64,000 bases of DNA from Clostridia bacterium (GTDB taxonomy: Bacteria > Bacillota > Clostridia > Oscillospirales > CAG-272), in the NCBI GenBank assembly GCA_017623355.1, contig JAGAPG010000020.1, forward strand, positions 2,762 to 66,761, written 5' to 3'. Of the stretch, positions 35,485 through 64,000 are shown one piece after another. Made by a program: the position numbers and the translations under genes. The notes under the pieces were generated by a model. That model worked only from the letters and a program-made list of their open reading frames with translations, was not told the DNA's origin and searched no databases. How positions within the stretch are numbered: the stretch's first letter is position 1; each line of letters begins with the position of its first letter.

Positions 35485-36745
35485 CGTTTTCGTGCCGATG
35501 AATGAAACGTTTCGCGAGTCTAACTCGGTAAGAGCCAGATACAGAGTGGAGTGTGGCTCTGCGGGAAGCGGAAAGAGTGTAAACGTTGCAAGAGATTATA
35601 TAATTAAGCTTTCTGACAAGGCGTATTCGGGAGCAAATTTGCTTTGTGTAAGAAAGACTGAAAGCTCGCATTTTGACAGCACGTACGCGGAGCTTACAAG
35701 AGCTATAAAGGATATTTTCGGAAAGCGGTGGCAGAGGTATTGGGAGCTTTCACGATCACCGTTAAGGATGCGCTGCAGGACTACGGGAAACGAAATAATC
35801 TTTCGCGGAACGAAGGATGACAGCCAAAGAGAGAAGCTGAAATCCATTCAAAGCGCGCAGGGAAAGATAGTGTGGGTGTGGATAGAGGAGGCAACGGAGC
35901 TTGACCCCGGCGATCTTGATATAATAGACGACCGACTTCGTGGCTCGCTTGAGGAAATAAATCCAAGGCTTTACTATCAGATAACGCTCACCTTCAATCC
36001 CGTAAGCGCAAATCATTGGATAAAGAAAAGGTTTTTCGACAAGGCGGACCCTCTTGCATATACTCACAGATCAAATTATCTTCAGAATGCGTTTATAGAC
36101 TCGGAATACCACAAAAGAATGATGCGAAGACGTGAAAACGACCCTGAGGGGTATCGTATTTATGGGCTTGGAGAGTGGGGCGAGAGCGATGGCTTGATCC
36201 TGCCGAAATACGAGGTCAGAGAGCTTGATAAGCGCTTTGAGCATTACGATAGCGTTTATATCGGTCAGGACTTTGGCTACAATCACGCGAACTGTATTTT
36301 AACGGTAGGCTTTCGTGACGGAGATGCTTATGTGCTTGGCGAGCTGTACACAAGAGGACTTGACACCTCGGAGATAATTGAGCTTGCAAAGCGCGCAAAA
36401 GTATCGCAAGCGGTGCCGATGTACTGTGACAGTGCAGAGCCCGACCGCATAAGGACGTGGAAAAAAGCAGGATTTTTCGCCGTTGCCGTTAAAAAAGAGC
36501 CCGGATCTGTCGGCGCGCAGATAGATTATTTAAAGAGCCACAGGCTTTTTATCGACACGTCCTGCGAAAATCTCATACGGGAGATAAGCATGTGGAAGTG
36601 GGAAAGGGATACTGACAGCGGAGAGTATACCGATATTCCCGTTTGCACCTGTGACGATGCGATAGCGGCGCTCCGCTATTCCATAGAGGGTGTAAGAAAA
36701 GGCAGAAGACTCCGCACAATATCAAAAAGCACACTCGGCATATGA
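35468..36745 (+). CDS. terminase large subunit (PBSX-type)
   Basis: Walker A GSAGSGKS, WIEEA (Walker B), and a C-terminal nuclease region DSAEPDRI. Confidence 0.88.
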   Translation: MTTENSVFVPMNETFRESNSVRARYRVECGSAGSGKSVNVARDYIIKLSDKAYSGANLLCVRKTESSHFDSTYAELTRAIKDIFGKRWQRYWELSRSPLRMRCRTTGNEIIFRGTKDDSQREKLKSIQSAQGKIVWVWIEEATELDPGDLDIIDDRLRGSLEEINPRLYYQITLTFNPVSANHWIKKRFFDKADPLAYTHRSNYLQNAFIDSEYHKRMMRRRENDPEGYRIYGLGEWGESDGLILPKYEVRELDKRFEHYDSVYIGQDFGYNHANCILTVGFRDGDAYVLGELYTRGLDTSEIIELAKRAKVSQAVPMYCDSAEPDRIRTWKKAGFFAVAVKKEPGSVGAQIDYLKSHRLFIDTSCENLIREISMWKWERDTDSGEYTDIPVCTCDDAIAALRYSIEGVRKGRRLRTISKSTLGI

Positions 36746-36763
36746 CGGGTGAGAAAGGAAAAA

Positions 36764-38011
36764 ATGACACAGGAACAGATCAAGGAAATTATCGAAAATT
36801 TCAATTCTCAGACACTCCCCAGGCTTAAAAGGCTCAAAAACTATTATTCGGGCAATCACGATATTCTTAATAAAACGAAGGATGCGGGCAAGCCGAACAA
36901 TCAGCTCGTTAATAATTTTTGCAAAAACATCACCGACACGACAGTGGGATATTTTATGGGCACGCCCGTTTGCTATTCCTCGGACAGAGAGGAGCTTATC
37001 GGCAGTATAAGGCTCATAAACGATTATAACGACGAGCAGTTTATAAACAGCCGTCTTTCAAAGGATCTTTCTGTATACGGCGTTGCCTGCGAGCTTGTTT
37101 ATTATGACGAGGATAAGATGATAAGAATAGCTCCGTGCGATGTTTTAAGCACGATACCCGTTTATTCGCCGTCAATAGATAGGGAGCTTAGCGCCGCGAT
37201 AAGAATTTACGAGCTTGAAGACGCCGAGGATGAGGATACCGTAGGGCTTGAGATCTATGACAGTAATCTCGTAAGCTACTATTCGTACAACACCTCAAGC
37301 GGCGAGGCGGTTATGATAAGAAGCGTTCCGCATTATTTTGGGTTAGTGCCGATAAACTTCTATTATAATAACTCCGATAAGACGGGTGATTTTGAGTCGG
37401 TAATGACACTTGTTGACGCGTATAACGAGCTTCAAAGCGAGAGCGTGAACGATTTTGAGCTTTTTGCGGATTCGTATCTTGCGGTTACGGGAATGAACGC
37501 GACAGACGCTGAGGACATAGCGAAGCTGCGTGAAAACAGAGTATTGCTTATTGACGAAGGCGGAGATGCAAAGTGGCTCACAAAGAGCGTGAACGATGCG
37601 TATATTGAAAACCTCAAGAAAAGAATATCATCAGATATCTACCGCTTCTCCGGCTCTGTTGATATGACGGACGATGCAATAGGCGAAAGCGCGTCGGGAG
37701 TGGCGATAAAATACAGACTCCTTAACTTTGAAAACAGAGTTTCGGTTACGGAGAGATATTTTAAGAAATCGCTTATGCGCAGATACGAGATGATATGCAA
37801 TATGCTAAACACTCTCGGAAACGACTACAGCGCGACGGAGATAAGGATAACCTTTACGAGAAATATTCCCGAAAATCCTATTGATAACGCGGATTACGCA
37901 CAGAAGATGGCGGGGGTAGTGTCGAGAAAGACGCTTCTTGAAAGAATACCGTTCGTTGATGACGTGGATAGCGAAATGTCGCGGATAAGAGAAGAAAGCA
38001 TTAATAATTAG
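36764..38011 (+). CDS. portal protein (SPP1 gp6-like)
   Basis: N-terminal R..RLKNYYSGNHDIL, ~415 aa, positioned after terL. Confidence 0.85.
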   Translation: MTQEQIKEIIENFNSQTLPRLKRLKNYYSGNHDILNKTKDAGKPNNQLVNNFCKNITDTTVGYFMGTPVCYSSDREELIGSIRLINDYNDEQFINSRLSKDLSVYGVACELVYYDEDKMIRIAPCDVLSTIPVYSPSIDRELSAAIRIYELEDAEDEDTVGLEIYDSNLVSYYSYNTSSGEAVMIRSVPHYFGLVPINFYYNNSDKTGDFESVMTLVDAYNELQSESVNDFELFADSYLAVTGMNATDAEDIAKLRENRVLLIDEGGDAKWLTKSVNDAYIENLKKRISSDIYRFSGSVDMTDDAIGESASGVAIKYRLLNFENRVSVTERYFKKSLMRRYEMICNMLNTLGNDYSATEIRITFTRNIPENPIDNADYAQKMAGVVSRKTLLERIPFVDDVDSEMSRIREESINN

Positions 38012-38019
38012 GAGGAAAA

Positions 38020-38571
38020 ATGGAGGAAGAAATTTTAAACGAGAAACAAAAAGAGGCTTTGGACACAGATAATGTCGAGGCGAAAAACGCAGATATCGAG
38101 AAAACGGAAGCCTCCGAGGCTGAGCAGGAATTAAAAGAGCCGAGCAAGCCTGACGAGCAAAAAACGACACTCCCTGCGCCGAAAACGGAAAGCAGCGACA
38201 AGCTTGACTCGCTTGATGCGGAAATAAAAAGACTCAAAAGAGAGCTTGACGAGGAGAGAAAAAAGCGCATAGAGGGAGAAAGCAGGCTTTATTGTATGGA
38301 GGCTCTTGAAAAAAGAGGGCTTCCAAGATCGCTTTGCGAGTTTTTGACTGCTCAAAGCAACGATGAAACGGACAAAAGAGTGGAGAGAGTGGCTGAAATT
38401 ATAAAGTCCTCGGTAAACGAGGAAATATCAAAAAGGCTTCAAGGAGTGCCTCAGCCAAGCAAAAGCGCGCCCGTTATGTCAAAGAGCGCGTTTAAAAATC
38501 TCTCACTTGACGAAATGCAGCGCTTATATAAAACTGACAAAACACTTTATATGTCGCTTGCGAAAAAATAA
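38020..38571 (+). CDS. capsid scaffolding protein (DUF4355-like)
   Basis: Acidic coiled-coil N-terminus, the GLPRSLCEFLTAQSNDETDKRV motif, and a position between portal and capsid. Confidence 0.7.
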   Translation: MEEEILNEKQKEALDTDNVEAKNADIEKTEASEAEQELKEPSKPDEQKTTLPAPKTESSDKLDSLDAEIKRLKRELDEERKKRIEGESRLYCMEALEKRGLPRSLCEFLTAQSNDETDKRVERVAEIIKSSVNEEISKRLQGVPQPSKSAPVMSKSAFKNLSLDEMQRLYKTDKTLYMSLAKK

Positions 38572-38591
38572 AATTATGAAAGGATAAAATT

Positions 38592-39662
38592 ATGCATACA
38601 ATTTACGAAAATCAAATTCTTGAAAACAAAATGACCGAGCTTATCGATACTAAGCTCAATACAAGAGCTCTTATGACTCTTGACACATCACTTGCCGAGG
38701 GCGCGGGTCTTCGCAAGGTTATCAACCGCTATACCTACAAGGGAACTGTTGAAAATCTTGAAAAGGGTGCGAAAAACACTGTGAAGGGAACTGTTTCCTT
38801 CGTACCTGAATATTATGATGTTAAGAGATATCAGCAGACCTTTGAATATAACGATATGGATGCTATGAGCGATCCTTATATCGTTGAGGTAGCTATGAGA
38901 GGCGCGGCAAACGAGATCACAAATCAAATCAATAAGGAATACTTCAATGAGCTTTCCAAGATCTCAAGAAGAAGCCATTTTGACGGCGATGCCGTTACAT
39001 ACGCGGATATCGTTGACGCTCTTTCTCTTATAGATGTTGAGGTCGACAAGCAGCTCTTTATCATTATGGGCAGCGAGATGAGAAAGCAGATAAGAAAGGA
39101 CCCTGATTTTGTTGCATCAAAGCAGGGCGAGATCCTTTATACAGGTCAATTCGGTACGCTTTGCGGAATACCCGTTCTCTTTTCAAAGCTCGTTGAGGGC
39201 GTAAAAGCCTACGTTACAAATCAGGATGCGGTGCGCTTCTTTGTAAAGAAGGAAGCCAGCGTTGAGCAGGCAAGAGATATCGAAACTAAGGACAACACCG
39301 TAGTTTACGAGCGTCACGGTCTTATTGCTCTTGTTGACGATACTACATCCTTGCAGATCGGTAAAAACATTCCCGATCTTAAGATATCCGTTAATGAGAA
39401 TTCATCAACCTCAGACGGAATTACTATGGCTAAGGTTACTCCTACAAAATCGAACCCAAGCAATATTGTTTACTATACTTATCAGGTAAGCGGGAAGCCG
39501 TTTTACGGAGATGCAATAAATCAATCCATTTGTGCGCAGCTCTTATCCGACGGTAATATTGCTCAGTTTAATAAGGGTGAGAAGATAGAATTCTTTGAGG
39601 CCGAGCCCAACACGGGTCTTATTGTGGGCTATGCCGAATACACCTTTAAAACGAGCTTGTAA
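38592..39662 (+). CDS. major capsid protein (HK97-fold, N4-gp56-like) with ~90-aa C-terminal extension
   Basis: Assigned by position, size, and N-terminal pattern IYENQILEN....GAGLRKVINRY. The extension starts about residue 265. Confidence 0.7.
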   Translation: MHTIYENQILENKMTELIDTKLNTRALMTLDTSLAEGAGLRKVINRYTYKGTVENLEKGAKNTVKGTVSFVPEYYDVKRYQQTFEYNDMDAMSDPYIVEVAMRGAANEITNQINKEYFNELSKISRRSHFDGDAVTYADIVDALSLIDVEVDKQLFIIMGSEMRKQIRKDPDFVASKQGEILYTGQFGTLCGIPVLFSKLVEGVKAYVTNQDAVRFFVKKEASVEQARDIETKDNTVVYERHGLIALVDDTTSLQIGKNIPDLKISVNENSSTSDGITMAKVTPTKSNPSNIVYYTYQVSGKPFYGDAINQSICAQLLSDGNIAQFNKGEKIEFFEAEPNTGLIVGYAEYTFKTSL

Positions 39663-39677
39663 TGAGGAGTGAGGGAA

Positions 39678-40007
39678 ATGGGATTTAAATCGGACAAAAC
39701 ACAGGACGAAATACTCAAAGAGGTATTGACGCTCCTTTCAATATCCGATAACGAAACGGAGAAAAACGTCGTTTCAAGCATCATTCCAAATGCGTTTCTC
39801 TATGCCTGCGAGTATTGCGGCATAGAGAGCGTGCCCTCGCATCTTCTTATACAGATGACGCTTGAGGATTATTCCAAAATAACCTCAGCCGGACTTACCA
39901 AAAGATCGCTTTCATCGCTTTCCGAGGAATATCTCGATAATTATTCTCCCAAGGTTATGGCTATTCTTGATAAGCTGAGGGGCGAAAAAAGGCTTATATG
40001 TCTGTGA
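39678..40007 (+). CDS. head-tail connector (gp6/QLRG-like)
   Basis: 109 aa. Assigned by position after the capsid gene and the pattern DEILKEVL..IS....E......I.NAFLYACEY. Confidence 0.55.
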   Translation: MGFKSDKTQDEILKEVLTLLSISDNETEKNVVSSIIPNAFLYACEYCGIESVPSHLLIQMTLEDYSKITSAGLTKRSLSSLSEEYLDNYSPKVMAILDKLRGEKRLICL

Positions 40008-40016
40008 GGTGATGCT

Positions 40017-40346
40017 ATGTTAAAAACGAAGAAAAGACCTTACAGGGTATACAGGCTTGAAAAGGTATCGGGGGTTAGCATAGCTAAATTTATCGCAAGC
40101 GTTGGAATATGTGTGGCTATGACCTCTGACAGACGCGATATAGATAACGATGTTAAATGCGTATATCTTAAAAAAAGGTACGCAGCGGTTGCCGATTCGC
40201 ATATTATAAAGGATGGAGATATAATCAGGGACGGCGATAGCTTTATGAGAGTTATCAGTGCGGTGTCATACGGAAACGAGAGCTATTTACATCTTGAAAG
40301 CACAGAGGTCTTCCAAGGAAGCGCGTTTGAATTTGAGGAGGCATAG
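40017..40346 (+). CDS. head closure/head-tail adaptor protein
   Basis: 109 aa; assigned by synteny only. Confidence 0.45.
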   Translation: MLKTKKRPYRVYRLEKVSGVSIAKFIASVGICVAMTSDRRDIDNDVKCVYLKKRYAAVADSHIIKDGDIIRDGDSFMRVISAVSYGNESYLHLESTEVFQGSAFEFEEA

Positions 40347-40347
40347 G

Positions 40348-40692
40348 ATGTTTGACGTTATTTTAAATAAGATCAAGGACGCAGTTGACAGAAGCGTGCT
40401 TGACAGACTCGAAAAAGTAAACGAGGAGTGCGTTATCGTCAACATCGAGCCGCAAAGCTATGACGGAACAGTATGCGATTCTACCGTAAAGGTGGTTTGC
40501 GTGTTCAAAAGCTATGAGGCATCACTCGATTGCTTTGACAAGGTGTGTGATGCGCTTTATTCGCTTCCTGCCGAGGATGGCGAGGTGCTCGATACTGTTC
40601 TTCAAAGCACGTTGATAAGATACGATACCGTATCGGGAATGACAAGACTTTTGGGAGAGTTTTCGGTATTTACGCGCGGAGAGGAGGAATAA
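40348..40692 (+). CDS. neck/tail-completion-like protein
   Basis: ATG at 40348 follows GAGGAGG; 114 aa; assigned by synteny only. Confidence 0.4.
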   Translation: MFDVILNKIKDAVDRSVLDRLEKVNEECVIVNIEPQSYDGTVCDSTVKVVCVFKSYEASLDCFDKVCDALYSLPAEDGEVLDTVLQSTLIRYDTVSGMTRLLGEFSVFTRGEEE

Positions 40693-40694
40693 GC

Positions 40695-41471
40695 TTGAAA
40701 ATAACTAACGGCAGAGAGACTTTGGTTTTCGGAGAAGGGGTAAGACTTACGTCGTTTTCGGAGAAGGGCTTTTGGGTAGACAACAATCTTAACACTGTGG
40801 TTGACGGCTTTGGCTATCACAAGGAGAATGCTAAGGTCGGCGCGAAGCGAATGATTTTGAAGGGCTACATAGAAAAGGATATTGAAGCGAATAAGCGGCT
40901 TTTGAACAGAATTTGCGATCCCAGCGTTGCGTTTTGCCGGATATACGATGGGAATTATGTGCTTGAGGGAAGGCTTTACAAGGGCATAGAGTATTCGGAT
41001 AGGAAAAACGACAAGCTCAAGCTGCTTGCCTTTACAGCGGAATTTTTTTGCCCCGATCCTGCATGGAAGGATACGGAGGAAAGAACGGAAATGCTCTATT
41101 CCTGCGGAAGCACCTCTTCGGGACAGGAGCCTCTCGTTTTACAGAACGACGGTGACAGAGAGGTCGGCTTTAAGCTTCGTATCGTTTTATCTTTGTCCTG
41201 CAAAAAAATAGAAATATCCTGCGATGACAAGAAAATAATTCTTTCGGGATCGTTTTCGGTCGGACAAAATATCTATATAGATACAAGAAAGGGCGAATGT
41301 ACCGTCAATATAACGCCTGTAAATTCAACCTCTCTTTCAAACGGAATGAGATATGTTTTGGCAGGCTCTGAATTTTTTAAGCTTAAGGTAGGGACAAGCT
41401 CTATCGGATATGAGTTTAACGGCGGAGCAGGGCATCTTGTGGCGACATATACACAGGAGTATTTGAGATGA
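40695..41471 (+). CDS. distal tail protein (Dit, Sipho_tail family)
   Basis: TTG start after GGAGG. Dit-like pattern L.GYI, FFCPDPAWK, LQNDGDREVGFKL.I and IYIDTRKG. Confidence 0.65.
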   Translation: MKITNGRETLVFGEGVRLTSFSEKGFWVDNNLNTVVDGFGYHKENAKVGAKRMILKGYIEKDIEANKRLLNRICDPSVAFCRIYDGNYVLEGRLYKGIEYSDRKNDKLKLLAFTAEFFCPDPAWKDTEERTEMLYSCGSTSSGQEPLVLQNDGDREVGFKLRIVLSLSCKKIEISCDDKKIILSGSFSVGQNIYIDTRKGECTVNITPVNSTSLSNGMRYVLAGSEFFKLKVGTSSIGYEFNGGAGHLVATYTQEYLR

Positions 41472-42457
41472 TGGATATAAAAATATACAATCCTGCCTTT
41501 GATCTTGAGGGAGTTATTGATTTCGTGAAGGAATATGATTATACCGAGGAGTTCAACGATTATTCGGAGTTTCATATGAGAGTGCCGAGCTCTGATAAGA
41601 ACAGAGAGCTTTTTATAACGGATAATTATATTGCCTTTTCGGACAAGCTTTTTCTTATTGATCGCGTAGTCGCCTCGGAAAATGAGATATATGCAAGCGG
41701 AGTAAGCATTTTTGCGCTTTTCAGGGATGTTCTTATAGAAGAACCGCAGGTTTTCAAGACCAATCCTTACGATACAGTCGCGGAGCTTGCCAAGCTTATC
41801 AGCATTCCGTATGCCACCTATGAGGTGTATACGATGCTTTGGAACAGCGAAATCACTTACAGTCAAATAAACTGTGTAAATACGAGCGTTTACACCCAGA
41901 TAAGAAACATTTGCAATATTTACGGCTTCGGCTTTCAGATGACGTTTTCTCCTGTTTCTAAAAGGATAATGTTTCAGATTATGCCGAAGCAGAAAAGGTA
42001 CAGCGACGGCGGAAGCTTTGCTTACGCAATAAGCGATATGAGAAATATGTACGAGCGTTGCTCCGTTGAAAGCGATATGTCGAGCTATAAAAACTACGCT
42101 CATATTCCTTACGGATATATTGATGATGTATATACCTACGAAAATGTCGATCATCGAGTAAGTCCGACGAACGAGAGAAAGCGCGCGATAAGCGTCAGTG
42201 TTCCTGCTATGCTTTCGTCAAGGGATCTTTCCGCTTCGTTAAGATATCTTGGCGAGATTGCGCTCTCTCATCACAGGGAAATAATCAGATTTACCGTGGA
42301 GCTTTTAAAGGATGTCGATGCTTCGCCCGGGGATGTGTGCGATTTTGAGTGTAAAAGAGACGGATATTTTTGTCACGCGCTCGTAAAAAGAATAACGAGA
42401 GGAGAGAAGGACGGCGCTGCTTTTGTCAGGGTGGTGCTTGATAAGGAGCATGAATGA
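41468..42457 (+). CDS. Siphovirus Gp37-like minor structural protein
   Basis: The N-terminal MDIKIYNPAFDLEGVIDF...Y.EEFNDYSEFHM pattern is typical of Sipho_Gp37 proteins, and it follows Dit. Confidence 0.55.
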   Translation: MMDIKIYNPAFDLEGVIDFVKEYDYTEEFNDYSEFHMRVPSSDKNRELFITDNYIAFSDKLFLIDRVVASENEIYASGVSIFALFRDVLIEEPQVFKTNPYDTVAELAKLISIPYATYEVYTMLWNSEITYSQINCVNTSVYTQIRNICNIYGFGFQMTFSPVSKRIMFQIMPKQKRYSDGGSFAYAISDMRNMYERCSVESDMSSYKNYAHIPYGYIDDVYTYENVDHRVSPTNERKRAISVSVPAMLSSRDLSASLRYLGEIALSHHREIIRFTVELLKDVDASPGDVCDFECKRDGYFCHALVKRITRGEKDGAAFVRVVLDKEHE

Positions 42458-42710
42458 TATATCTAAGGAGCTTTGCGAGGAAAGAGCTCAAAGAACCGAA
42501 AAGCGTCTCGATAAGCATTCGTCTGCTATTGACGAGTTGTGCGCGTGCTCTGTAAAGCTTACCGAGATGATGAGAATACACAACGAAAGGATAGACGATC
42601 ACGAATCGCGCTTGGGCTCGCTTGAAAAGCGTCCCGGAGATATCGTGGGAAGGGTGATTGATGCGCTTATCTCGGCGGTGACGGCGGCTATCGTTTGTAT
42701 GATACTTTAG
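42450..42710 (+). CDS. XhlA-like lysis-associated membrane protein
   Basis: ~86 aa with an N-terminal coiled coil (RLDKH...HNERIDDHESRLGSLEK) and a single C-terminal TM segment, as in PBSX XhlA. Confidence 0.55.
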   Translation: MNDISKELCEERAQRTEKRLDKHSSAIDELCACSVKLTEMMRIHNERIDDHESRLGSLEKRPGDIVGRVIDALISAVTAAIVCMIL

Positions 42711-42724
42711 AAAGGAGGGGTATT

Positions 42725-42955
42725 ATGTTGAAAAAGATATTGAATAAGCTTTCAAGCAGAAAGTTTTGGGCAGCGCTTGTGGGCTTTGTTTCCACGATAT
42801 GTGTTGCGCTCGGTGTAGATGCTCTTACGACTGAGCAGGTGTGCGCCGTTATAGGCGCTTGCGCTACGCTTTGCGTTTATATTCTTGCGGAGAGCTATAT
42901 TGATGTTAAGAGCAATACATCCGAGGAGGCTGAAAAAGAAGAAAATAAATCTTAA
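42725..42955 (+). CDS. phage holin (XhlB/SPP1-holin-like)
   Basis: 76 aa, two TM helices, a charged C-terminal tail, and ATG after AAAGGAGGGG. Confidence 0.65.
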   Translation: MLKKILNKLSSRKFWAALVGFVSTICVALGVDALTTEQVCAVIGACATLCVYILAESYIDVKSNTSEEAEKEENKS

Positions 42956-43024
42956 AAAACCTTTATTTTTTCCCCGTTATGTGTTAAAATTAAATTGATA
43001 CAGAGAATGACGAGGTTTTGATAA

Positions 43025-43870
43025 ATGGTAAAGGCGATCATTTTTGATCTTGACGGTACGCTTTGCAATACCATCGAGGATATAAGAACGGGTCTTAACG
43101 CGATGCTGACGAAGCTCGGATATAAAACGAGAAGCCGCGCGGATGTGATCAAATTTATAAATAACGGAGCGAAAACACTTGTACGCCGTGCCTTGCCCAA
43201 GGAGGTGCAGGGGGTGGAGTTTATCGTGGATAGCGCGCTTGAGGTTTATACTAACGAGTATGCAAAGTGCTACTGCGAGTTTACCGAGGCTTATAACGGC
43301 ATAGAATATATGCTTGCAGAGCTTAAAAGAAAGGGCTATAAGCTTGCTGTTTTTTCAAATAAGCAGGACAAGTTTGTTAAGGATATAATATCGAGACTCT
43401 TCAATAAAAAGCTGTTCTCCGAGGTGTTGGGACAGAGTGCGTTTCCTGCCAAGCCCGACCCGACGGGGCTTCATTATATCGCGAAGCAGCTTGGTGTAAA
43501 GCTTTCGTCGTGCGTTTACGTCGGTGACAGTGACGTTGATATCAAAACGGCGCAGAACGCGGATATAGAGATCATTGGATGTGATTGGGGATATCGCGGA
43601 GAGGAATTTCTTCGTTCTTGGGGAGCCGTAAGGATAGCAAAGCGTCCTGAGGATGTAGTCGAGCATATTCAGTTAATTGAGCTTGAGGAGCAGAAGCGCA
43701 GAGAGGAAAGAAAGCGCGCAAGAAGGAACAGACTTGCAAGAGCTTATGGCGAGGATGTTGCCGAGGAGACGGATGAAAACGATTCTAAGACTGCGGAAGC
43801 TCAAGAGACGACAACGCAAGGCGAGCCCGAGATCACCGCAGAGGAAGAAACGGATATCACAAATGAATAA
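43025..43870 (+). CDS. HAD-IA phosphatase (phosphoglycolate phosphatase-like) with acidic C-terminal tail
   Basis: IIFDLDGTLCNT (motif I), VFSNK (motif II) and VGDSDVDI (motif IV). Confidence 0.8.
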   Translation: MVKAIIFDLDGTLCNTIEDIRTGLNAMLTKLGYKTRSRADVIKFINNGAKTLVRRALPKEVQGVEFIVDSALEVYTNEYAKCYCEFTEAYNGIEYMLAELKRKGYKLAVFSNKQDKFVKDIISRLFNKKLFSEVLGQSAFPAKPDPTGLHYIAKQLGVKLSSCVYVGDSDVDIKTAQNADIEIIGCDWGYRGEEFLRSWGAVRIAKRPEDVVEHIQLIELEEQKRREERKRARRNRLARAYGEDVAEETDENDSKTAEAQETTTQGEPEITAEEETDITNE

Positions 43871-45474: not shown

Positions 45475-45530
45475 AAAAAACAGTGCTGTTAGCGTTCCTT
45501 AAGGATGACACGCAAACAGCACTGTTTCCA
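45475..45530. terminator. bidirectional terminator between convergent genes
   Basis: aacagtgctgtt (45479-45490) pairs with aacagcactgtt (45515-45526), flanked by A/T runs. Confidence 0.7.
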
Positions 45531-46972: not shown

Positions 46973-47188
46973 GTGTATAATTAAATAGACAAATTTTCTA
47001 CACTTTTTATCATAGCCGAGGTTGACGTTACGTCAACTTTTGAGTATGTGATTATAAACAAAAAGAAACTTTATAGGCGCAGAAGGCTTTTCTAACGCGT
47101 ACTTGTGTATCAAGAGGGGAAACGTACAAGCGAGGATAACGCCGATCATTTTCAGCGTTCTTTTTGTTTTCTCCTTTTTTTAAAAGTG

Positions 47189-47217
47189 TTGACTTTTTTT
47201 AAAATACAGTGTATAAT
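47189..47217 (+). promoter_or_regulatory. consensus promoter of small RNA copy A
   Basis: TTGACT, 17-nt spacer, TATAAT. The same arrangement precedes copy B. Confidence 0.7.
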
Positions 47218-47221
47218 CTTA

Positions 47222-47300
47222 TCAAGAATTCAACCAGACGCCGGCAGAAATTGCACGGAAATCCGGAGGTAACTCCAAATTTCGGTTGAATTCTTTTTTT
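47222..47300 (+). ncRNA. candidate structured small RNA, copy A (three-way junction, P1 doubles as terminator stem)
   Basis: P1 aagaattcaacc/ggttgaattctt; P2 ccggca/tgcAcgg with loop gaaat; P3 ggag-gtaa-ctcc; U-tract. Covaries with copy B at 58253-58328. Confidence 0.6.
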
Positions 47301-47491
47301 ATTTTTTACCATGCTTTTTTGCGTATTGTTTATTGAATTTCTTTATAGCTTAAAGCGTTTTTGACGGTCGGTTGCTTTATCTGCGGATGCGCCGTAATGC
47401 TTTTGCTACCATAATAATCCCTTTAAGATAATAATATAGCGCAAAAGCGTTGCGTTCGATAAGAATAAAAGCAAGTTTTAATAAAAAAGCA

Positions 47492-47520
47492 TTGAAATCG
47501 GCGACAAAATATCTTATAAT
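47492..47520 (+). promoter_or_regulatory. sigma-A type promoter of nagB
   Basis: TTGAAA, 17-nt spacer, TATAAT. The inverted repeat aaatatctt/aagatattt overlaps the -10. Confidence 0.6.
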
Positions 47521-58159: not shown

Positions 58160-58221
58160 CCTCAAGCGCTATATAATTTGCTCGTAATATCAGAGCTTTA
58201 GGCAATGATTATGAAAAAATA

Positions 58222-58249
58222 TTGACTTTTTAAAAATATGGCGTATAAT
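58222..58249 (+). promoter_or_regulatory. consensus promoter of small RNA copy B
   Basis: TTGACT, 16-nt spacer, TATAAT. Confidence 0.7.
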
Positions 58250-58252
58250 ATA

Positions 58253-58328
58253 TCAAGAATTCAGCCCACGCCTGTAGAAATTACAGGAACCATGGAGGTA
58301 ACTCCAAATCTGGCTGAATTCTTTTTTA
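58253..58328 (+). ncRNA. candidate structured small RNA, copy B
   Basis: P1 aagaattcagcc/ggctgaattctt; P2 cctgta/tacagg with loop gaaat; P3 ggag-gtaa-ctcc; U-tract. Confidence 0.6.
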
Positions 58329-58403
58329 TTTTCACCATATTTTTCAAGTTAAAAAGTATATAAAAATTGTATATAAAGTGAGCAAAAATCCTTATGAATA
58401 AAG

Positions 58404-58453
58404 AAAAAAGACCGTATAAATACCTACTTTGTGAGTAGTTTTTATACAGTCTT
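58404..58453 (-). terminator. intrinsic terminator of the minus-strand operon
   Basis: The minus strand reads gactgtataaa...tttatacggtc, with an inner ctact/agtag stem, followed by tttttt. Confidence 0.75.
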
Positions 58454-58483
58454 TCTGGCTAATAACCCTAATTTTGATACAAA

Positions 58484-58720
58484 TTAAGCAGCATCAAAAA
58501 CTCTTATTTCATCTAAAAAGGCGTCCATATAGCCATGCAATTCCGCACTACGGCTTTGCAATTCTTGCAAGGCGGAAGGAGTGATGCTGTGGTTTAATAA
58601 GTCTCTTAATTTCTTTACGGACATTCTGCCAGGAGAATCTTCCGAACCGAACAAGTTTGTTAATAAAGCCTTATCAAACGTATATCCAGCAAATGACAAT
58701 GCAAAGGGGACTTGTGTCAT
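58484..58720 (-). CDS. small hypothetical protein (78 aa) carrying an R-x4-H motif
   Basis: ATG at 58720 lies 2 nt after the TAG of the upstream ORF. RDLLNH is encoded at 58589-58606. Confidence 0.45.
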   Translation of the reverse strand: MTQVPFALSFAGYTFDKALLTNLFGSEDSPGRMSVKKLRDLLNHSITPSALQELQSRSAELHGYMDAFLDEIRVFDAA

Positions 58721-58722
58721 CA

Positions 58723-58941
58723 CTACTTTAAAGTAATCACTATACTGTCCAGTTTTTTGTATTGATGTTCTCTCAAAATAAATTTATATGTAATTTCACA
58801 AATCGAGAACTTATCTTTGAAACTGTCAATTTCGGCTTTAACTTTTTTATCGTTAAATATTGTCTCAAGACGAAGCATTTCTGCACGAGCATCATTTCTT
58901 AACCGTAATTGTTCTTGCGGGTTTATTTTTGGGGTAGCCAT
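58723..58941 (-). CDS. small hypothetical protein (72 aa)
   Basis: ATG at 58941 lies 7 nt after AAGGAG. Predicted to be all-helical. Confidence 0.45.
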   Translation of the reverse strand: MATPKINPQEQLRLRNDARAEMLRLETIFNDKKVKAEIDSFKDKFSICEITYKFILREHQYKKLDSIVITLK

Positions 58942-58960
58942 TTTGCATCTCCTTTGCCAT

Positions 58961-59476
58961 TTACAATGTGAAACCAAGTGTACGCATCATATAGAAAAGA
59001 TTTTCTGTTTTGACACCGAACACATTGGCAACATCGGGGATTTTGGCGTTCTTGCTCGGGCTACGGGGATTGAGCCCTTTGTTCGGCACTTCAAATGTGA
59101 TTATGGTATATCCTTTTGCTTTCGCTGTAGATATTAACCACGGGTCAGCTACAGTACCTTTTGCCCATTCAGCCAAAGCGGAAGGCTTGTAACAAGCATT
59201 GCTTTGAATATGACCTAAGACTGCTCCGTAATGTGCTAATATGGTTGGATCTCTTCGGTCAACATAGGTGCCTATTGTTAAAGCCTCTATCCAATCTTTC
59301 AAACTATCCTCACCCTGGAGTATTTCGTCTTTGACCAAATCAAGAATAGCAATATCTCCATTTTGGATATGCTCCTCCATTTGGCTCCAAAAGCTTTCAG
59401 CAAAATCAAACGGATAATACATCAAATGCGGAGTGATAAGGGAGTTGGCATCAATCAAGAAAATTTCTTTACTCAT
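58961..59476 (-). CDS. DUF4411 (PIN-like nuclease fold) protein
   Basis: The N-terminal IFLIDANSLITP, then ADPWLIS and IPDVANVFGV, are characteristic of DUF4411. ATGA overlap with the upstream peptidase gene. Confidence 0.7.
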   Translation of the reverse strand: MSKEIFLIDANSLITPHLMYYPFDFAESFWSQMEEHIQNGDIAILDLVKDEILQGEDSLKDWIEALTIGTYVDRRDPTILAHYGAVLGHIQSNACYKPSALAEWAKGTVADPWLISTAKAKGYTIITFEVPNKGLNPRSPSKNAKIPDVANVFGVKTENLFYMMRTLGFTL

Positions 59477-60648
59477 TTCAAGCCACCTCCTACCGTTTCT
59501 GCCAAATTACTAAAAGTAGAGCGGTTTGTATTTGTAAGACGGAAAGCATCCGAATATAATGTGCGACCGGCTTTAACACTACCTACGAGCATATGGAAGA
59601 ATCTTTTATCAATCCTACTAGCTGCCGTGCGATAGAAATCACCGCCACCTTCTCCGCGCTCCTTCTTTCTCTTGCGAGCCTCATTGTATAATGTAATTGC
59701 TAATTGCGCAATTTTTTTATACACATCATAAGAAATAAGGTTTCCGTCGTATGCCTTTCGGGCAATTACCGTAATACCACATTTGAATTTATCAGATAAG
59801 AGCCTAATGTTCTCTTCGTGATTATCCTTGTCTTCAAGAGCGTTCCACGCATCCACAAAAGCTTGATGAGGAACTAATATTTCGGCAGCCACAGCATTGC
59901 AAAGTGTTTCAGCTTTCTTTACTTGTGTTCCGGTACTATCGCGATCATTAAATAAGCTATTTTCCCCAATGCATAGGTGAGTAAACTCATGAAGCAAGGA
60001 AAACAGTTTTCCGTTGGTGGAATCATTAGAGTTGATAAAAATAAGCGGAGCATATTCATCTACCACCGCAAAAGCGCGGAACTCATTAATATCTAGCGGA
60101 CGGTGGGTATTATTTCCTACGATTCCGCTCATCATTACGATAGTTCCTACGTTGCTCATTGCCGTTCTAATATAGTTGAAAGATTCCTCGGCGGTTTTGC
60201 AGGCGGTATACCAATCAATTTTTATATCTAATATTTCTCTTACTCGCTGTGCAAACTTCATAAAATTGGATTGAGATTTAAGTTCTCCAACGAAAGTCAA
60301 AGGAGTACTTCCTTCAGAAATCAAATAATCTCGGACCCAATCTTGAACTTGCCCCATATCGTGCATTGTATCCATTAAATTTCGGCTAGGTGTGTCCAAG
60401 GAGGCACTGTCCACCGTGCGAAATTCAATTAAAGACATATCTTCGGCGGGAGGGGTTTGCAAAAAGAAATATCCCAAAGGAATGCCCGTGGCTTTGCTCA
60501 CTTTTTCAACTTGATTGAAAGTTGGCGTTTTTTTGCCGTGATGCCAGGACTCCAAGTATTCAACTATTTGATAATTTAGGGTTTCGGGCTGTATTTGACC
60601 TAGTACCCAATTCAGTATTTCAGGGGAAATACTAACATTTACTTGCAT
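59473..60648 (-). CDS. HTH (XRE-like) + ImmA/IrrE family zinc metallopeptidase
   Basis: HEFTHL (HExxH), an N-terminal HTH-like region (TPTFNQVEKVSKATGIPLGYF), and COG2856-type architecture. ATG at 60648 lies 7 nt after GGAGG. Confidence 0.8.
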   Translation of the reverse strand: MQVNVSISPEILNWVLGQIQPETLNYQIVEYLESWHHGKKTPTFNQVEKVSKATGIPLGYFFLQTPPAEDMSLIEFRTVDSASLDTPSRNLMDTMHDMGQVQDWVRDYLISEGSTPLTFVGELKSQSNFMKFAQRVREILDIKIDWYTACKTAEESFNYIRTAMSNVGTIVMMSGIVGNNTHRPLDINEFRAFAVVDEYAPLIFINSNDSTNGKLFSLLHEFTHLCIGENSLFNDRDSTGTQVKKAETLCNAVAAEILVPHQAFVDAWNALEDKDNHEENIRLLSDKFKCGITVIARKAYDGNLISYDVYKKIAQLAITLYNEARKRKKERGEGGGDFYRTAASRIDKRFFHMLVGSVKAGRTLYSDAFRLTNTNRSTFSNLAETVGGGLK

Positions 60649-60686
60649 CACTTCACCTCCTATTACAAGTATTTATTGTTTGATAA

Positions 60687-61124
60687 TTATTCATTGGAAC
60701 AACTATCAGTATTTTTTATTCTCAAGGTAACCTTAAAATTCTCTTCCGGGAACAGCGAATCGTGTTCACGGCATCTTGCTACCTCTGCCTTTATAACGCT
60801 CTCAACGGCGTGTTTGCCGTATTCGTCAAGGCGTAAATATGCCATAATCGTTTCGTAAAAACTTTCCTCGGCTTCCCATATGCCGAGTTGCTCTATATCC
60901 TCTTCCGTTATCTTAGGCGAAGAAGGGTCATTGGACGAGCCGAGAATATAATCTATCCGTCTATCGAATATGTCTGAAAGCGCATCAAGCGTTTCAAAGT
61001 TTGGCTCTCGTTTGCCGATCTCCCACATTGCAACCGTTCCCTTGGAAACGCCCAAAAGTTCCGCAAGCTGCACCTGGGTCATATTCTTTTCTTTACGTAA
61101 TTCTTTCAATCTGTGAGCAAACAT
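60687..61124 (-). CDS. XRE-family HTH transcriptional repressor (CI/ImmR-like)
   Basis: RLKELRKEKNMTQVQLAELLGVSKGTVAMWEIGKREP. ATG at 61124 follows GAGGTG. Confidence 0.85.
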   Translation of the reverse strand: MFAHRLKELRKEKNMTQVQLAELLGVSKGTVAMWEIGKREPNFETLDALSDIFDRRIDYILGSSNDPSSPKITEEDIEQLGIWEAEESFYETIMAYLRLDEYGKHAVESVIKAEVARCREHDSLFPEENFKVTLRIKNTDSCSNE

Positions 61125-61217
61125 TTCATCACCTCGCATAAATTATATCACGAATCGTGAGTATTGTCAAGTGTTTTCTAACGCTTTGATGGTGCTTGCG
61201 ATATTTTTTTGAAGAAA

Positions 61218-61272
61218 AAGATAACTTTCTGTGAGATTTGCTATTGACAAAGATAACTGAATGTTGTATAAT
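61218..61272 (+). promoter_or_regulatory. consensus promoter with repeated aagataact boxes (candidate operators) between the divergent regulators
   Basis: TTGACA (61244-61249), 17-nt spacer, TATAAT (61267-61272). aagataact occurs at 61218-61226 and 61249-61257. Confidence 0.65.
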
Positions 61273-61305
61273 ATACTTGTAAATCTCACGAAAGGAGAGA
61301 ATTTT

Positions 61306-61494
61306 ATGAAAAATGAGACAAAACCGTCGATGATGACCATCAAGCAGATAGCAAAAACAGGGCTGATGCCCGAAAATGCTCTCCGTCAACTTTTGAAGGA
61401 AGGCAAGCTGCCTGTTGTCTATATCGGCAAAAAGGCTCTCATTAACTATTCCAAGTTATGTGAACTTCTCAATCGGCTCGGTGATACCGAATGA
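61306..61494 (+). CDS. small excisionase/AlpA-like helix-turn-helix DNA-binding protein
   Basis: 62 aa. MTIKQIAKTGLMPENALRQLLKEGKLP.VYIGKKALI fits the excisionase-type HTH_17 pattern. AAAGGAGAG RBS. Confidence 0.6.
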   Translation: MKNETKPSMMTIKQIAKTGLMPENALRQLLKEGKLPVVYIGKKALINYSKLCELLNRLGDTE

Positions 61495-61527
61495 CCGATG
61501 CAAAATTTATGGAAAGGAGGAAACGGA

Positions 61528-63825
61528 ATGAGAACTCAATACACTAATCTGCCGAGCCTGTTAAAGAAGGAAGGCTTGTTTTGCTTATGGCAATACGAAA
61601 CTCGCGATGGCAAAAAGACCAAGGTTCCGTATTGTATCCGTGGTTATCGTGCTGACCCCAGAAACAAAAATACATTTTCAAAGTTTGACCAAGTCATTAG
61701 CCTTGCCAACGGATATGACGGAATCGGCATCGGTGTTTTTGATGACATCTGCGCCGTAGATATCGACCATTGTGTAGAAGACGGAGTGCTTTCAGAAATG
61801 GCTGACGATATCGTAAAAATGATGGACTCCTATACCGAGTATAGTCCCTCCGGTACTGGTGTGCGTATCTTTTTCAAGGCAAGCGGTCTGTCCTATGACA
61901 AAGAGCGTTACTACGTCAATAATCGCAAATTCGGTCTTGAAATCTATGTTTCCGGTTATACAAACAAATTTGTAACCGCTACAGGGAACGTGCTTATTGA
62001 CCGAAATATCGAAGACCGAACCGAGGCTCTTTTGCTCGTACTTGAAAAATATATGGTCAAGCCGACACAGTTATATACTCGCCGTGAGGATGTTCCCGGT
62101 AGCTTTCTTTCAGACGAGTCCATAATTGCCAAAGCAAGCGCATCCAAGCAGGGTGAAAAGTTCTCGGCTTTATGGTATGGCGATGTCTCTGCATACGGAA
62201 GCCAAAGCGAAGCCGACCTTGCCCTTTGCTCCATTCTTGCATTTTGGTGTGGCGGTGATATTGAGCAAATGGATAGACTCTTCCGTCAATCTGATCTTAT
62301 GCGAGAAAAATGGGAGAGGGAGGATTATAGAATGAACACATTGAACCGAGCCGTGGCAATGACCAAGGAATTTTATAAGCCTCTCGGTCGAACCGCTCCG
62401 GCAGCGGAGTTTAATGATATTTCCATATTTCTTGATGAAGCCGCTCCCGAACGCAATGACCGTTACCCTTGGACGGACATTGGCGGCGGACGGCTATTTG
62501 CGGATTGCTTTGAGAGCATTGCCAGGTATGTCCCCGAGAAGAAGAGCTGGTACTGTTACAAAGACGGCGTGTGGTCTACCGACAGCGGTGCGCTCCGCAC
62601 GATGGAACTTTGTAAGGCGTTAGCGGATGCATTAATCGTATATGCGGTATCCATTCATGATGAACGCCAAAGACAAGAGTTTATGAAATACTGCACCAAA
62701 TGGCAGACGCGCCGTACGCGAGAAACGCTACTCAAAGATGCCCAAGGCGTACACCCCATATCCCTCTCGGAATTTGATTGCGACCCTTACATCTTTAATT
62801 GTAAGAACGGTACATTACATCTTGATACGATGGCTTTTACAGAACATCGCGCAGAAGACCGCTTGACCAAGATCTCAAATGTGGAATATGACCCTTCCGC
62901 ATATAGTTCTCGGTTTGAAAGCTTTGTATCCGAAATTATGAGCGGAGATGTCGACAAAGCGAGATTTCTCCAAAAGGCTCTCGGCTATGGTATCAGCGGA
63001 GATACGCGCTACGAGTGTATGTTCATAATGTACGGCGCAACCACCCGTAACGGAAAAGGCACCTTGTGCGAAAGCGTTCTGAAGGTTCTCGGCAATTATG
63101 GTTGTACCGCAAGACCGGAAACTTTAAGTATCAACGCCAACAGCAACAGCCAGACCCCGAGCGAAGATATCGCAAGGCTTGCAGGGGTACGCTTTGCCAA
63201 CATTTCCGAGCCTGGTAAGGGACTCCTTCTTAACGGAGCAAAGGTCAAAAATATGACGGGCAATGATACCATCAACGCTCGTTTCCTTCACGAAAACAGC
63301 TTTGACTTCACTCCACAATTCAAGCTCTACATCAATACCAACTACCTTCCCGTCATCAATGATATGACTCTTTTCAGCAGCGGGCGTGTAGTCATTATTC
63401 CTTTTGAAAGGCACTTTGAAGAAGCCGAGCAGGACAAGACTTTGAAAACGGAATTCTCAAAACCGGAAGTTCAAAGCGCAATCCTCAATTGGCTTGTAGA
63501 CGGCTATCGTATGCTGACGAAAGAAGGATTGTCGCAACCGCAAGCGGTCAAGGAAGCAACCGCTTCTTACGAACACGAAAGTGATAAGATTGCTATGTTT
63601 GCCGAGGACAATCTTATTGAGGATAAACGCTCCGAGGTTCGTACCGCCGAAGTCTACAGCCGATACAAGGAGTGGTGTATGGACAACGGACACCGTGCTG
63701 AAAGCATGAAGAACTTCAAGCAAGGACTTATGACGCAAGGCTCGGTTGTCCGCAAGCGACCGAGGGGCGGTGGTAGCGAAACCACAATGCTCATCGGTTT
63801 CAAACTCGTCAGCGACTTCCTTTAA
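61528..63825 (+). CDS. bifunctional prim-pol primase / P4-D5-type SF3 helicase
   Basis: N-terminal prim-pol (GIGIGVF..AVDIDHC), a PriCT-like SQSEADLALCSILAFW, Walker A GATTRNGKGT, and a D5_N-like middle region. Confidence 0.85.
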   Translation: MRTQYTNLPSLLKKEGLFCLWQYETRDGKKTKVPYCIRGYRADPRNKNTFSKFDQVISLANGYDGIGIGVFDDICAVDIDHCVEDGVLSEMADDIVKMMDSYTEYSPSGTGVRIFFKASGLSYDKERYYVNNRKFGLEIYVSGYTNKFVTATGNVLIDRNIEDRTEALLLVLEKYMVKPTQLYTRREDVPGSFLSDESIIAKASASKQGEKFSALWYGDVSAYGSQSEADLALCSILAFWCGGDIEQMDRLFRQSDLMREKWEREDYRMNTLNRAVAMTKEFYKPLGRTAPAAEFNDISIFLDEAAPERNDRYPWTDIGGGRLFADCFESIARYVPEKKSWYCYKDGVWSTDSGALRTMELCKALADALIVYAVSIHDERQRQEFMKYCTKWQTRRTRETLLKDAQGVHPISLSEFDCDPYIFNCKNGTLHLDTMAFTEHRAEDRLTKISNVEYDPSAYSSRFESFVSEIMSGDVDKARFLQKALGYGISGDTRYECMFIMYGATTRNGKGTLCESVLKVLGNYGCTARPETLSINANSNSQTPSEDIARLAGVRFANISEPGKGLLLNGAKVKNMTGNDTINARFLHENSFDFTPQFKLYINTNYLPVINDMTLFSSGRVVIIPFERHFEEAEQDKTLKTEFSKPEVQSAILNWLVDGYRMLTKEGLSQPQAVKEATASYEHESDKIAMFAEDNLIEDKRSEVRTAEVYSRYKEWCMDNGHRAESMKNFKQGLMTQGSVVRKRPRGGGSETTMLIGFKLVSDFL

Positions 63826-63828
63826 CAC

Positions 63829-63921
63829 AATGTCGCAACTTGTCGCAGGTTCTATAGGTTGTTTTGAAAAAACGCTCTTTTATAGAAATGACATATTTTA
63901 CTTGCGACAATCTGCGACAGA
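63829..63921. repeat. iteron cluster / candidate replication origin
   Basis: tgtcgca at 63831 and 63841 (10-bp phasing). The inverted tgcgaca lies at 63903 and 63913 (10-bp phasing). They flank an AT-rich 55-bp spacer with ctata..tatag. Confidence 0.55.
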
Positions 63922-64000
63922 CGTCTTTTACAAGACAATTGTGACCTAAGGGGCGGGTCAAATCTGCGGGCACAAAATAGTGTCCAACGGGTGGGCAGCC

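Follow-up and report, generated by a model that had tools for sequence, protein, structure and literature searches.

Stand-alone and 3'UTR-type small RNA (sRNA) genes have their own sigma-A-type promoter and a short transcript, with a terminator hairpin and U-tract as its 3' end. The two-copy unit described here, found in a 64,000-nt stretch of DNA (hereafter the window) from an uncultured Clostridia species, is predicted to have the same parts. The two copies (copy A and copy B) are paralogues, as known sRNAs can be, and copy B lies right after a coding gene, with whose mRNA it probably has its terminator in common. In contrast to those sRNAs, the terminator helix here closes the whole RNA, so that the 5' end is fully paired; a long unpaired seed is absent. 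No homologues were found outside one species, whereas most studied sRNAs are kept at least within the genus.

The purine riboswitch class (RF00167 and relatives) resembles the unit in its size of ~70 nt, in a closing helix P1 with two hairpins that form a three-way junction, and in conserved bases in the junction and loops. Unlike that class, which has two mutually pairing 7-nt loops, the unit has loops of 5 and 4 nt (GAAAU and GUAA) that cannot kiss, and cmscan gave no covariance-model match at E ≤ 10. Membership was also rejected by location: no expression platform is present, copy B faces convergent genes outside any 5' UTR, and the promoter of nagB lies 3' of the copy A terminator.

Two kinds of DNA module are also comparable. 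The Correia elements of Neisseria and the BOX and RUP elements of pneumococcus number tens to hundreds of copies and show target duplications. They share with the present unit a length of ~100–150 nt, inverted-repeat ends, a possible supply of promoters or terminators, and variable intergenic sites, but here there are two copies, no duplication, and a conserved unit that exceeds the inverted repeat. Phage 'morons' are likewise promoter-to-terminator modules absent from close relatives, and copy B lies ~130 nt from an integrated phage-like element. Unlike a moron, the predicted RNA of copy B (RNA-B) lies outside the element, as delimited by 14-bp terminal inverted repeats and by a related element, and copy A has no mobile neighbor.

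None of the family memberships that could be tested holds for the unit, and we treat it as an orphan. We put the probability at roughly 55% that the two copies are paralogous small RNA genes confined to one lineage, each transcribed independently and giving a compact structured RNA, any function for which is a guess. To our knowledge, no small RNAs have been characterized in this uncultured gut Clostridia lineage. If real, the pair would represent a very compact and probably very stable RNA design, in which the 5' end is sealed in the terminator helix. The known structured RNAs would also gain an orphan family, and binding studies a small, easily synthesized candidate.

Anatomy of the two-copy unit

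An earlier note on this DNA had described a unit of ~120 nt at two sites, each copy running from a near-consensus sigma-A promoter with a 16–17-nt spacer to a terminator. BLASTN recovered both copies and extended the shared sequence to 137 nt, with 78.8% identity, 22 mismatches and 6 gaps (Table 1). The copy number in the window is two, and no A/B similarity was seen outside either border by BLASTN or in the alignment. Because the similarity starts just 5' of the −35 box and stops just 3' of the T-run, the duplicated unit is the putative gene itself, exactly one module from promoter to terminator.

Table 1. Features of the two copies and of the neighboring phage-like element; positions are those of the window unless L056 is named
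Feature	Coordinates	Strand	Details and basis
Copy A, whole unit	47182..47318	+	A/T-rich upstream stretch, promoter, RNA, terminator, and ACCAT after the T-run (common to both copies); BLASTN limits, alignment
Copy A promoter	47189..47217	+	TTGACT (47189), 17-nt spacer, TATAAT (ends 47217); 11/12
Predicted RNA-A	47224..47300	+	~77 nt; folding; start placed by distance to the −10 box
RNA-A P1	47224-47235 with 47284-47295	+	
RNA-A P2	47241-47246 with 47252-47258	+	Bulged A; loop GAAAU at 47247-47251
RNA-A P3	47265-47268 with 47273-47276	+	Loop GUAA
RNA-A U-tract	47294-47300	+	
Copy B, whole duplicated unit	58215..58344	+	BLASTN, alignment
Copy B promoter	58222..58249	+	TTGACT (58222), 16-nt spacer, TATAAT (ends 58249); 11/12
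Predicted RNA-B	58255..58327	+	~73 nt; folding, RNAalifold
RNA-B P1	58255-58266 with 58312-58323	+	
RNA-B P2	58271-58276 with 58282-58287	+	Loop GAAAU at 58277-58281
RNA-B P3	58294-58297 with 58302-58305	+	Loop GUAA
RNA-B U-tract	58322-58327	+	
Phage-like integrative element	~58452-64000 and beyond (L056 6925-21141)		Absent from the closest relative (L029)
tRNA-Ser(GGA)	L056 21147-21237	minus	3' end adjoins the element

The predicted promoters of both copies match the sigma-A consensus at 11 of 12 hexamer positions, with spacers in the accepted 16–18-nt range, and the first base of P1 follows 6–7 nt 3' of the −10 box in each. The first strand of P1 is AAGAATTC and the second is GAATTCTT, followed by T7 in copy A and T6 in copy B. 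This 12-bp helix encloses a 6-bp hairpin, P2, with the loop GAAAU, and a 4-bp hairpin, P3 (GGAG-GUAA-CUCC). A stable stem directly before a U-tract is what defines an intrinsic terminator, and P1 directly before U7 or U6 bears out the promoter-to-terminator description of the two diverged copies. As a terminator P1 is atypical: its 'loop' is a 48-nt two-hairpin insert, and a simple terminator scan does not call it.

An EcoRI-type GAATTC is present in every P1 arm, giving two sites per copy (47226-47231 and 47288-47293 in copy A, 58257-58262 and 58316-58321 in copy B). These sites are probably a coincidence of the palindrome.

In the mechanism that we propose, sigma-A RNA polymerase would start at about A47224 in copy A or A58255 in copy B, the first base of P1, and would then transcribe ~72 nt. 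The 12-bp P1 would close over P2 and P3 directly before the run of 6–7 U, and transcription would stop there. The product would be a compact RNA of ~75 nt with a fully paired 5' end and a short U tail, features that should make it stable. We infer a trans-acting role, in which the folded RNA particle may bind or sequester a protein or small ligand.

Fold and compensatory changes

The three-way junction is both the minimum free energy (MFE) and the centroid fold of each copy folded singly, with z-scores of −4.9 and −5.5 for the two copies against dinucleotide shuffles. RNAalifold found the same 21 pairs in the A/B alignment, with the structure not supplied, and these predictions agree on the common P1/P2/P3 fold that had been drawn in the earlier note. 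Neither copy has lost any of the 21 base pairs (42 of 42 pair cells standard), and pairing falls to 29–53% when the 3' partners are slid by 1–3 columns.

Across the RNA, aligned over 72 columns, 14 differences separate the copies (11 substitutions, 3 single-base indels; ~19% divergence). The six that fall in stems are without exception compensated. They include two clean compensatory pairs, an A-U to G-C change in P1 and a C-G to U-A change in P2. The third change in P2 is a register shift, in which a G-C beside the bulged A of copy A is replaced by a U-A, with one C deleted, in copy B. The compensatory changes first reported in P1 and P2 are thus real for these two pairs, while the description of P2 as changed at three positions on both sides was overstated, the third being the register shift.

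When 11 random substitutions were placed in copy A, all pairs were kept in 0.07% of 200,000 trials. The mutants had an MFE of −15.8 ± 4.1 kcal/mol, compared with −29.5 kcal/mol for the real copy B, a mean loss of ~14 kcal/mol. A shuffle control of the A/B pairing gave 117/500, in a test in which two sequences cannot reach significance.

The promoter hexamers, P3, the unpaired bases around the junction (ACG, AA and AAAU), the GAAAU loop and the GNRA loop GUAA are identical in the two copies, while the stems drift with compensation. This pattern fits an RNA whose shape matters. The invariance of the GAAAU loop and of P3 had been noted before and holds in the alignment; the accompanying proposal, that an exposed CUCC/GGAGG could act as an anti-Shine-Dalgarno or Shine-Dalgarno mimic, is unsupported, as GGAG and CUCC pair with each other inside P3, neither is exposed, and no other observation speaks for it. 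The longest A/B identical blocks, of 16, 13 and 12 nt, are by our estimate about as long as expected by chance at 79% identity, and the case for selection is carried mainly by the compensated stems and the intact promoter hexamers. A pseudoknot between L2 and J3/1 was also considered, and was dropped as it is possible in copy A only.

The pairs are all Watson–Crick, with no G-U, and the minus strand folds equally well. Pairing alone therefore separates neither selection at the RNA level from selection at the DNA level nor one strand from the other, and the strand is assigned solely by the promoter and the T-run.

Conserved unpaired runs in the A/B alignment reach 5–7 nt at most, and a long antisense seed therefore seems unlikely. 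Complementarity of the RNA to the rest of the window, scored as 10–11-mers within the window, is at the chance level. Because of these short unpaired runs and the chance-level complementarity in the window, we favor binding of a protein or ligand over an antisense role. A far more specific proposal is that both genes found an undescribed RNA class, in which the terminator helix doubles as the closing helix of a three-way-junction aptamer or decoy. The pair would be a stand-alone sensor or sponge for a metabolite or protein tied to the nearby amino-sugar and glycan-degradation genes, loosely like the GlmY/GlmZ paralogues. This proposal is a long shot.

Family searches and distribution

Rfam 15 gave no match at the gathering thresholds in the whole window. 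At E ≤ 10, the two loci drew terminator-shaped junk only, scoring at most 24 bits against thresholds of 36–211, and the failure of the earlier reading to place the RNA in any known family was thus borne out by the database check. Several motifs were considered individually and rejected. The junction strands AGACG/CACG, AAAUCC/AACCAU and AAAUUUC/AAAUCU do not fit the hammerhead ribozyme core (CUGANGA, GAA), for which Rfam also gave no match. An integron attC site fits copy A (ATTCAAC / GTTGAAT), but not copy B (ATTCAGC / GCTGAAT), and there is no cassette array. A phi29-type packaging RNA was rejected for the lack of an RF00044 match and for the position of both copies outside phage-like blocks. 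PyrR, RAT and ANTAR sites and CsrA GGA loops were rejected on sequence alone. Origin from the nearby tRNA-Ser was rejected because its local alignment was no better than that of shuffles; no tRNA was found in the window itself.

No reading frame is shared between copies A and B in any of the six frames, in agreement with the earlier statement that no ORF is conserved; the 23-codon frame reported then in copy B is the inner part of a 41-codon open frame whose ATG, at 58238, falls within the −10 box. Protein-level searches were run, which were meant to catch RNA copies mistranslated by gene callers. They gave no real match for the 41-aa frame of copy B among 1.84 billion protein representatives, or for a composite of all 12 frames (six per copy) among 5.8 billion predicted proteins.

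A covariance model, R1, was built from copies A and B. Run on the window with filters off, R1 returned the two copies and ordinary terminators only. It found no third copy in ~82 kb of the genome (the window with 10 kb to its left and 8 kb to its right), and no further copy in 21 IMG/VR relatives of the neighboring element. Sister loci from six lineages, ~0.3 Mb in all, were collected through homologues of the flanking proteins (GH106-like protein at 93%, 78% and 74% identity; SNF transporter at 88%, 83% and 80% identity). The RNA is absent from the syntenic loci of all six lineages, including in the run with filters off. Weak R1 matches elsewhere are ordinary terminators; one, in sister locus L041 (11537-11632), at first resembled a branched terminator but has the fold of a simple bidirectional terminator with a 28-bp stem.

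The invariant core, from L2 to P3, was sought by exact pattern in IMG/VR, in GTDB representatives (one genome for each of 185,579 species) and among 241 million records of JGI metagenomes; each match was read, and all were due to chance. A further two, looser scans of IMG/VR, checked by covariance model and regular expression, also gave chance matches only, and BLASTN of both copies against phage and plasmid records gave short chance matches only. Text searches of the literature, with the P3 sequence and the sample accessions as queries, turned up nothing of relevance.

All contigs of the same species (at least 10 samples) show 100% identity across both regions, so the RNA family amounts to two sequences in one apparently clonal, uncultured Clostridia species, relatives of which are labeled at NCBI as 'Clostridia bacterium' or 'Ruminococcaceae bacterium'. 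The organism is present in sequencing runs SRR12529167, SRR12529195-203 and SRR14627503 and in assemblies ERZ28018701 and ERZ28654xxx. The proposed search of related genomes and metagenomes for homologues with covarying stems came back empty, and the covariation comprises the two clean pairs between these two sequences, with no population or phylogenetic covariation to add. Such a limit on comparative analysis makes the RNA a lower-priority lead than widely conserved orphan RNAs.

The sister genomes have unrelated sequence at the sites of both copies. The closest relative is homologous to the window up to 58162, just past the stop codon of the GH106-like gene, after which come 138 nt of unrelated sequence. 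The relative with the 88% identical SNF transporter has three extra genes in place of the intergenic region of copy A. Absence of the unit at both syntenic sites in the sisters indicates that it is dispensable for these relatives. The moron-like shape, with its own promoter and terminator, and the position at two synteny breaks suggest that DNA-level duplication probably brought the unit in, or relocated it, once this lineage had separated from its nearest sequenced relatives.

Genomic setting and rival explanations

Relative to the closest relative, ~14.5 kb is inserted between the GH106-like gene and tRNA-Ser(GGA), and most of this is the phage-like integrative element (Table 1). Its boundaries are marked by inverted repeats of 14 bp, TAATTTTGATACAA, at 58469-58482 of the window and at 21122-21135 of L056, beside the tRNA. 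The element encodes an HTH repressor, an M78/ImmA-type protein (RmrA/CapP-like by PADLOC), a DUF4411 protein, two small ORFs, a D5-type primase, a capsid protein, two large serine recombinases, a DNA methylase and a SacI-like endonuclease. A 97%-related element from IMG/VR matches the window only from ~58452 rightward, and its left flank differs. This boundary places RNA-B outside the element, in a short species-specific segment that separates the GH106-like gene from the integration site.

This setting bears on the reading of the unit as a non-autonomous mobile or repeat element (MITE-like, palindrome-associated), in which the P1 arms are terminal inverted repeats, the inner hairpins are features of the DNA, and promoter or terminator activity is a side effect, as in Correia or BOX-type repeats. 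P1 is a perfect 12-bp inverted repeat with the strand-symmetric folding described above, both copies lie at synteny breaks, and copy B is near the tRNA-Ser integration hot spot. Against it, the conserved unit goes past the arms and takes in the promoter, and no target-site duplication is visible, with no direct repeat shared at the unit borders. The earlier note had pointed out that many copies with terminal inverted repeats would indicate a MITE; only two copies exist in the ~82 kb, and none in the ~0.3 Mb of sister loci, the GTDB representatives, the JGI metagenomes or IMG/VR. The copies are also 21% diverged, unlike recently active repeats. We consider a mobile repeat unlikely.

Rather improbable is a terminator or insulator module, in which the branched P1 and its U-tract end upstream transcription and the promoter match is fortuitous or vestigial. 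Copy B begins 56 nt past the stop codon of the GH106-like gene (58159) and faces a convergent operon, with nothing downstream on its own strand. A simple scan, which is a weak test, saw no terminator between 58160 and 58219, and on this ground P1 and the U-tract of RNA-B probably also end the GH106-like mRNA. The ordinary terminators among the weak matches of the covariance model likewise fit a terminator role. However, each copy has retained an 11/12 promoter with the same spacing to P1, and copy A has no co-oriented upstream gene, as the SNF gene, which encodes a sodium-dependent transporter, is divergent from it with its own promoter-like site. Moreover, P2, P3 and the conserved loops are unneeded in a terminator, yet P2 is compensated and P3 and L3 are invariant. 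Independent small RNA genes, one of which probably also serves as an mRNA terminator, remain our preferred reading.

Two observations concern the surroundings of the SNF gene. A near-perfect 17-nt palindrome, GTTGACGT-T-ACGTCAAC (47021-47037), overlaps the promoter-like site of the gene and is likely a regulator binding site. Between the convergent SNF and GH43 genes lie long bidirectional terminators, at 45478-45527 in the window and at 11537-11632 in L041, the latter with a 28-bp stem of −55 to −60 kcal/mol.

We give little credence to a cis-acting leader (a riboswitch or attenuator whose aptamer lies inside the terminator) for nagB, of which copy B would be a displaced orphan. Copy A is 240 nt upstream of nagB, which encodes a protein of the glucosamine-6-phosphate isomerase family, on the same strand, and a ~70-nt three-way junction resembles small aptamers. 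However, nagB has its own promoter match (11/12) at 47492, after the copy A terminator, whereas copy B has no downstream gene on its strand to control. An alternative anti-terminator pairing is absent, nagB of the sister species is inside an operon that lacks such an element, and there are no riboswitch matches in Rfam.

Still less weight goes to a neutral, decaying duplicate of an intergenic segment that has no function. Absence from relatives and identical blocks that are, by our estimate, no longer than chance at 79% identity are consistent with it, but compensation of all six stem differences occurs in ~7e-4 of random trials, and both promoter hexamers are intact in both copies.

That the unit is the gene of a small protein or type I toxin, read from the hydrophobic 23/41-codon frame of copy B (which encodes MEVTPNLAEFFFIFTIFFKLKSI) or from the MVK...FGVTS frames of the minus strands (both of which begin with ATGGT and have FGVTS in common), is very improbable, as indels break the frames between the copies, the C-terminal parts are unrelated, no ORF is kept, no Shine-Dalgarno sequence or other ribosome-binding site precedes either ATG, and neither protein search gave a real match.

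Further phage-related sequence was seen in and around the window. At 35729-43728 is a block of phage structural genes (terminase, SPP1-type portal, capsid, Dit and tail protein, by Pfam in the sister locus), which is syntenic with sister species L041 at 72–78% nucleotide identity. The synteny points to a conserved prophage or a gene-transfer-agent-like cluster, and not to a recent insertion. Among the IMG/VR relatives of the integrative element, with a 97% identical primase, other genes replace the module of two small ORFs, DUF4411 and M78 proteins (L062 1267-3803 and L061 1-2535, compared with 58484-60651 of the window), and the left-end cargo module of the element appears to be swappable. 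Just outside the left end of one related element (L062 1020-1200) is a dense array of GTGAAAT / ATTTCAC, which looks like an iteron or operator array.
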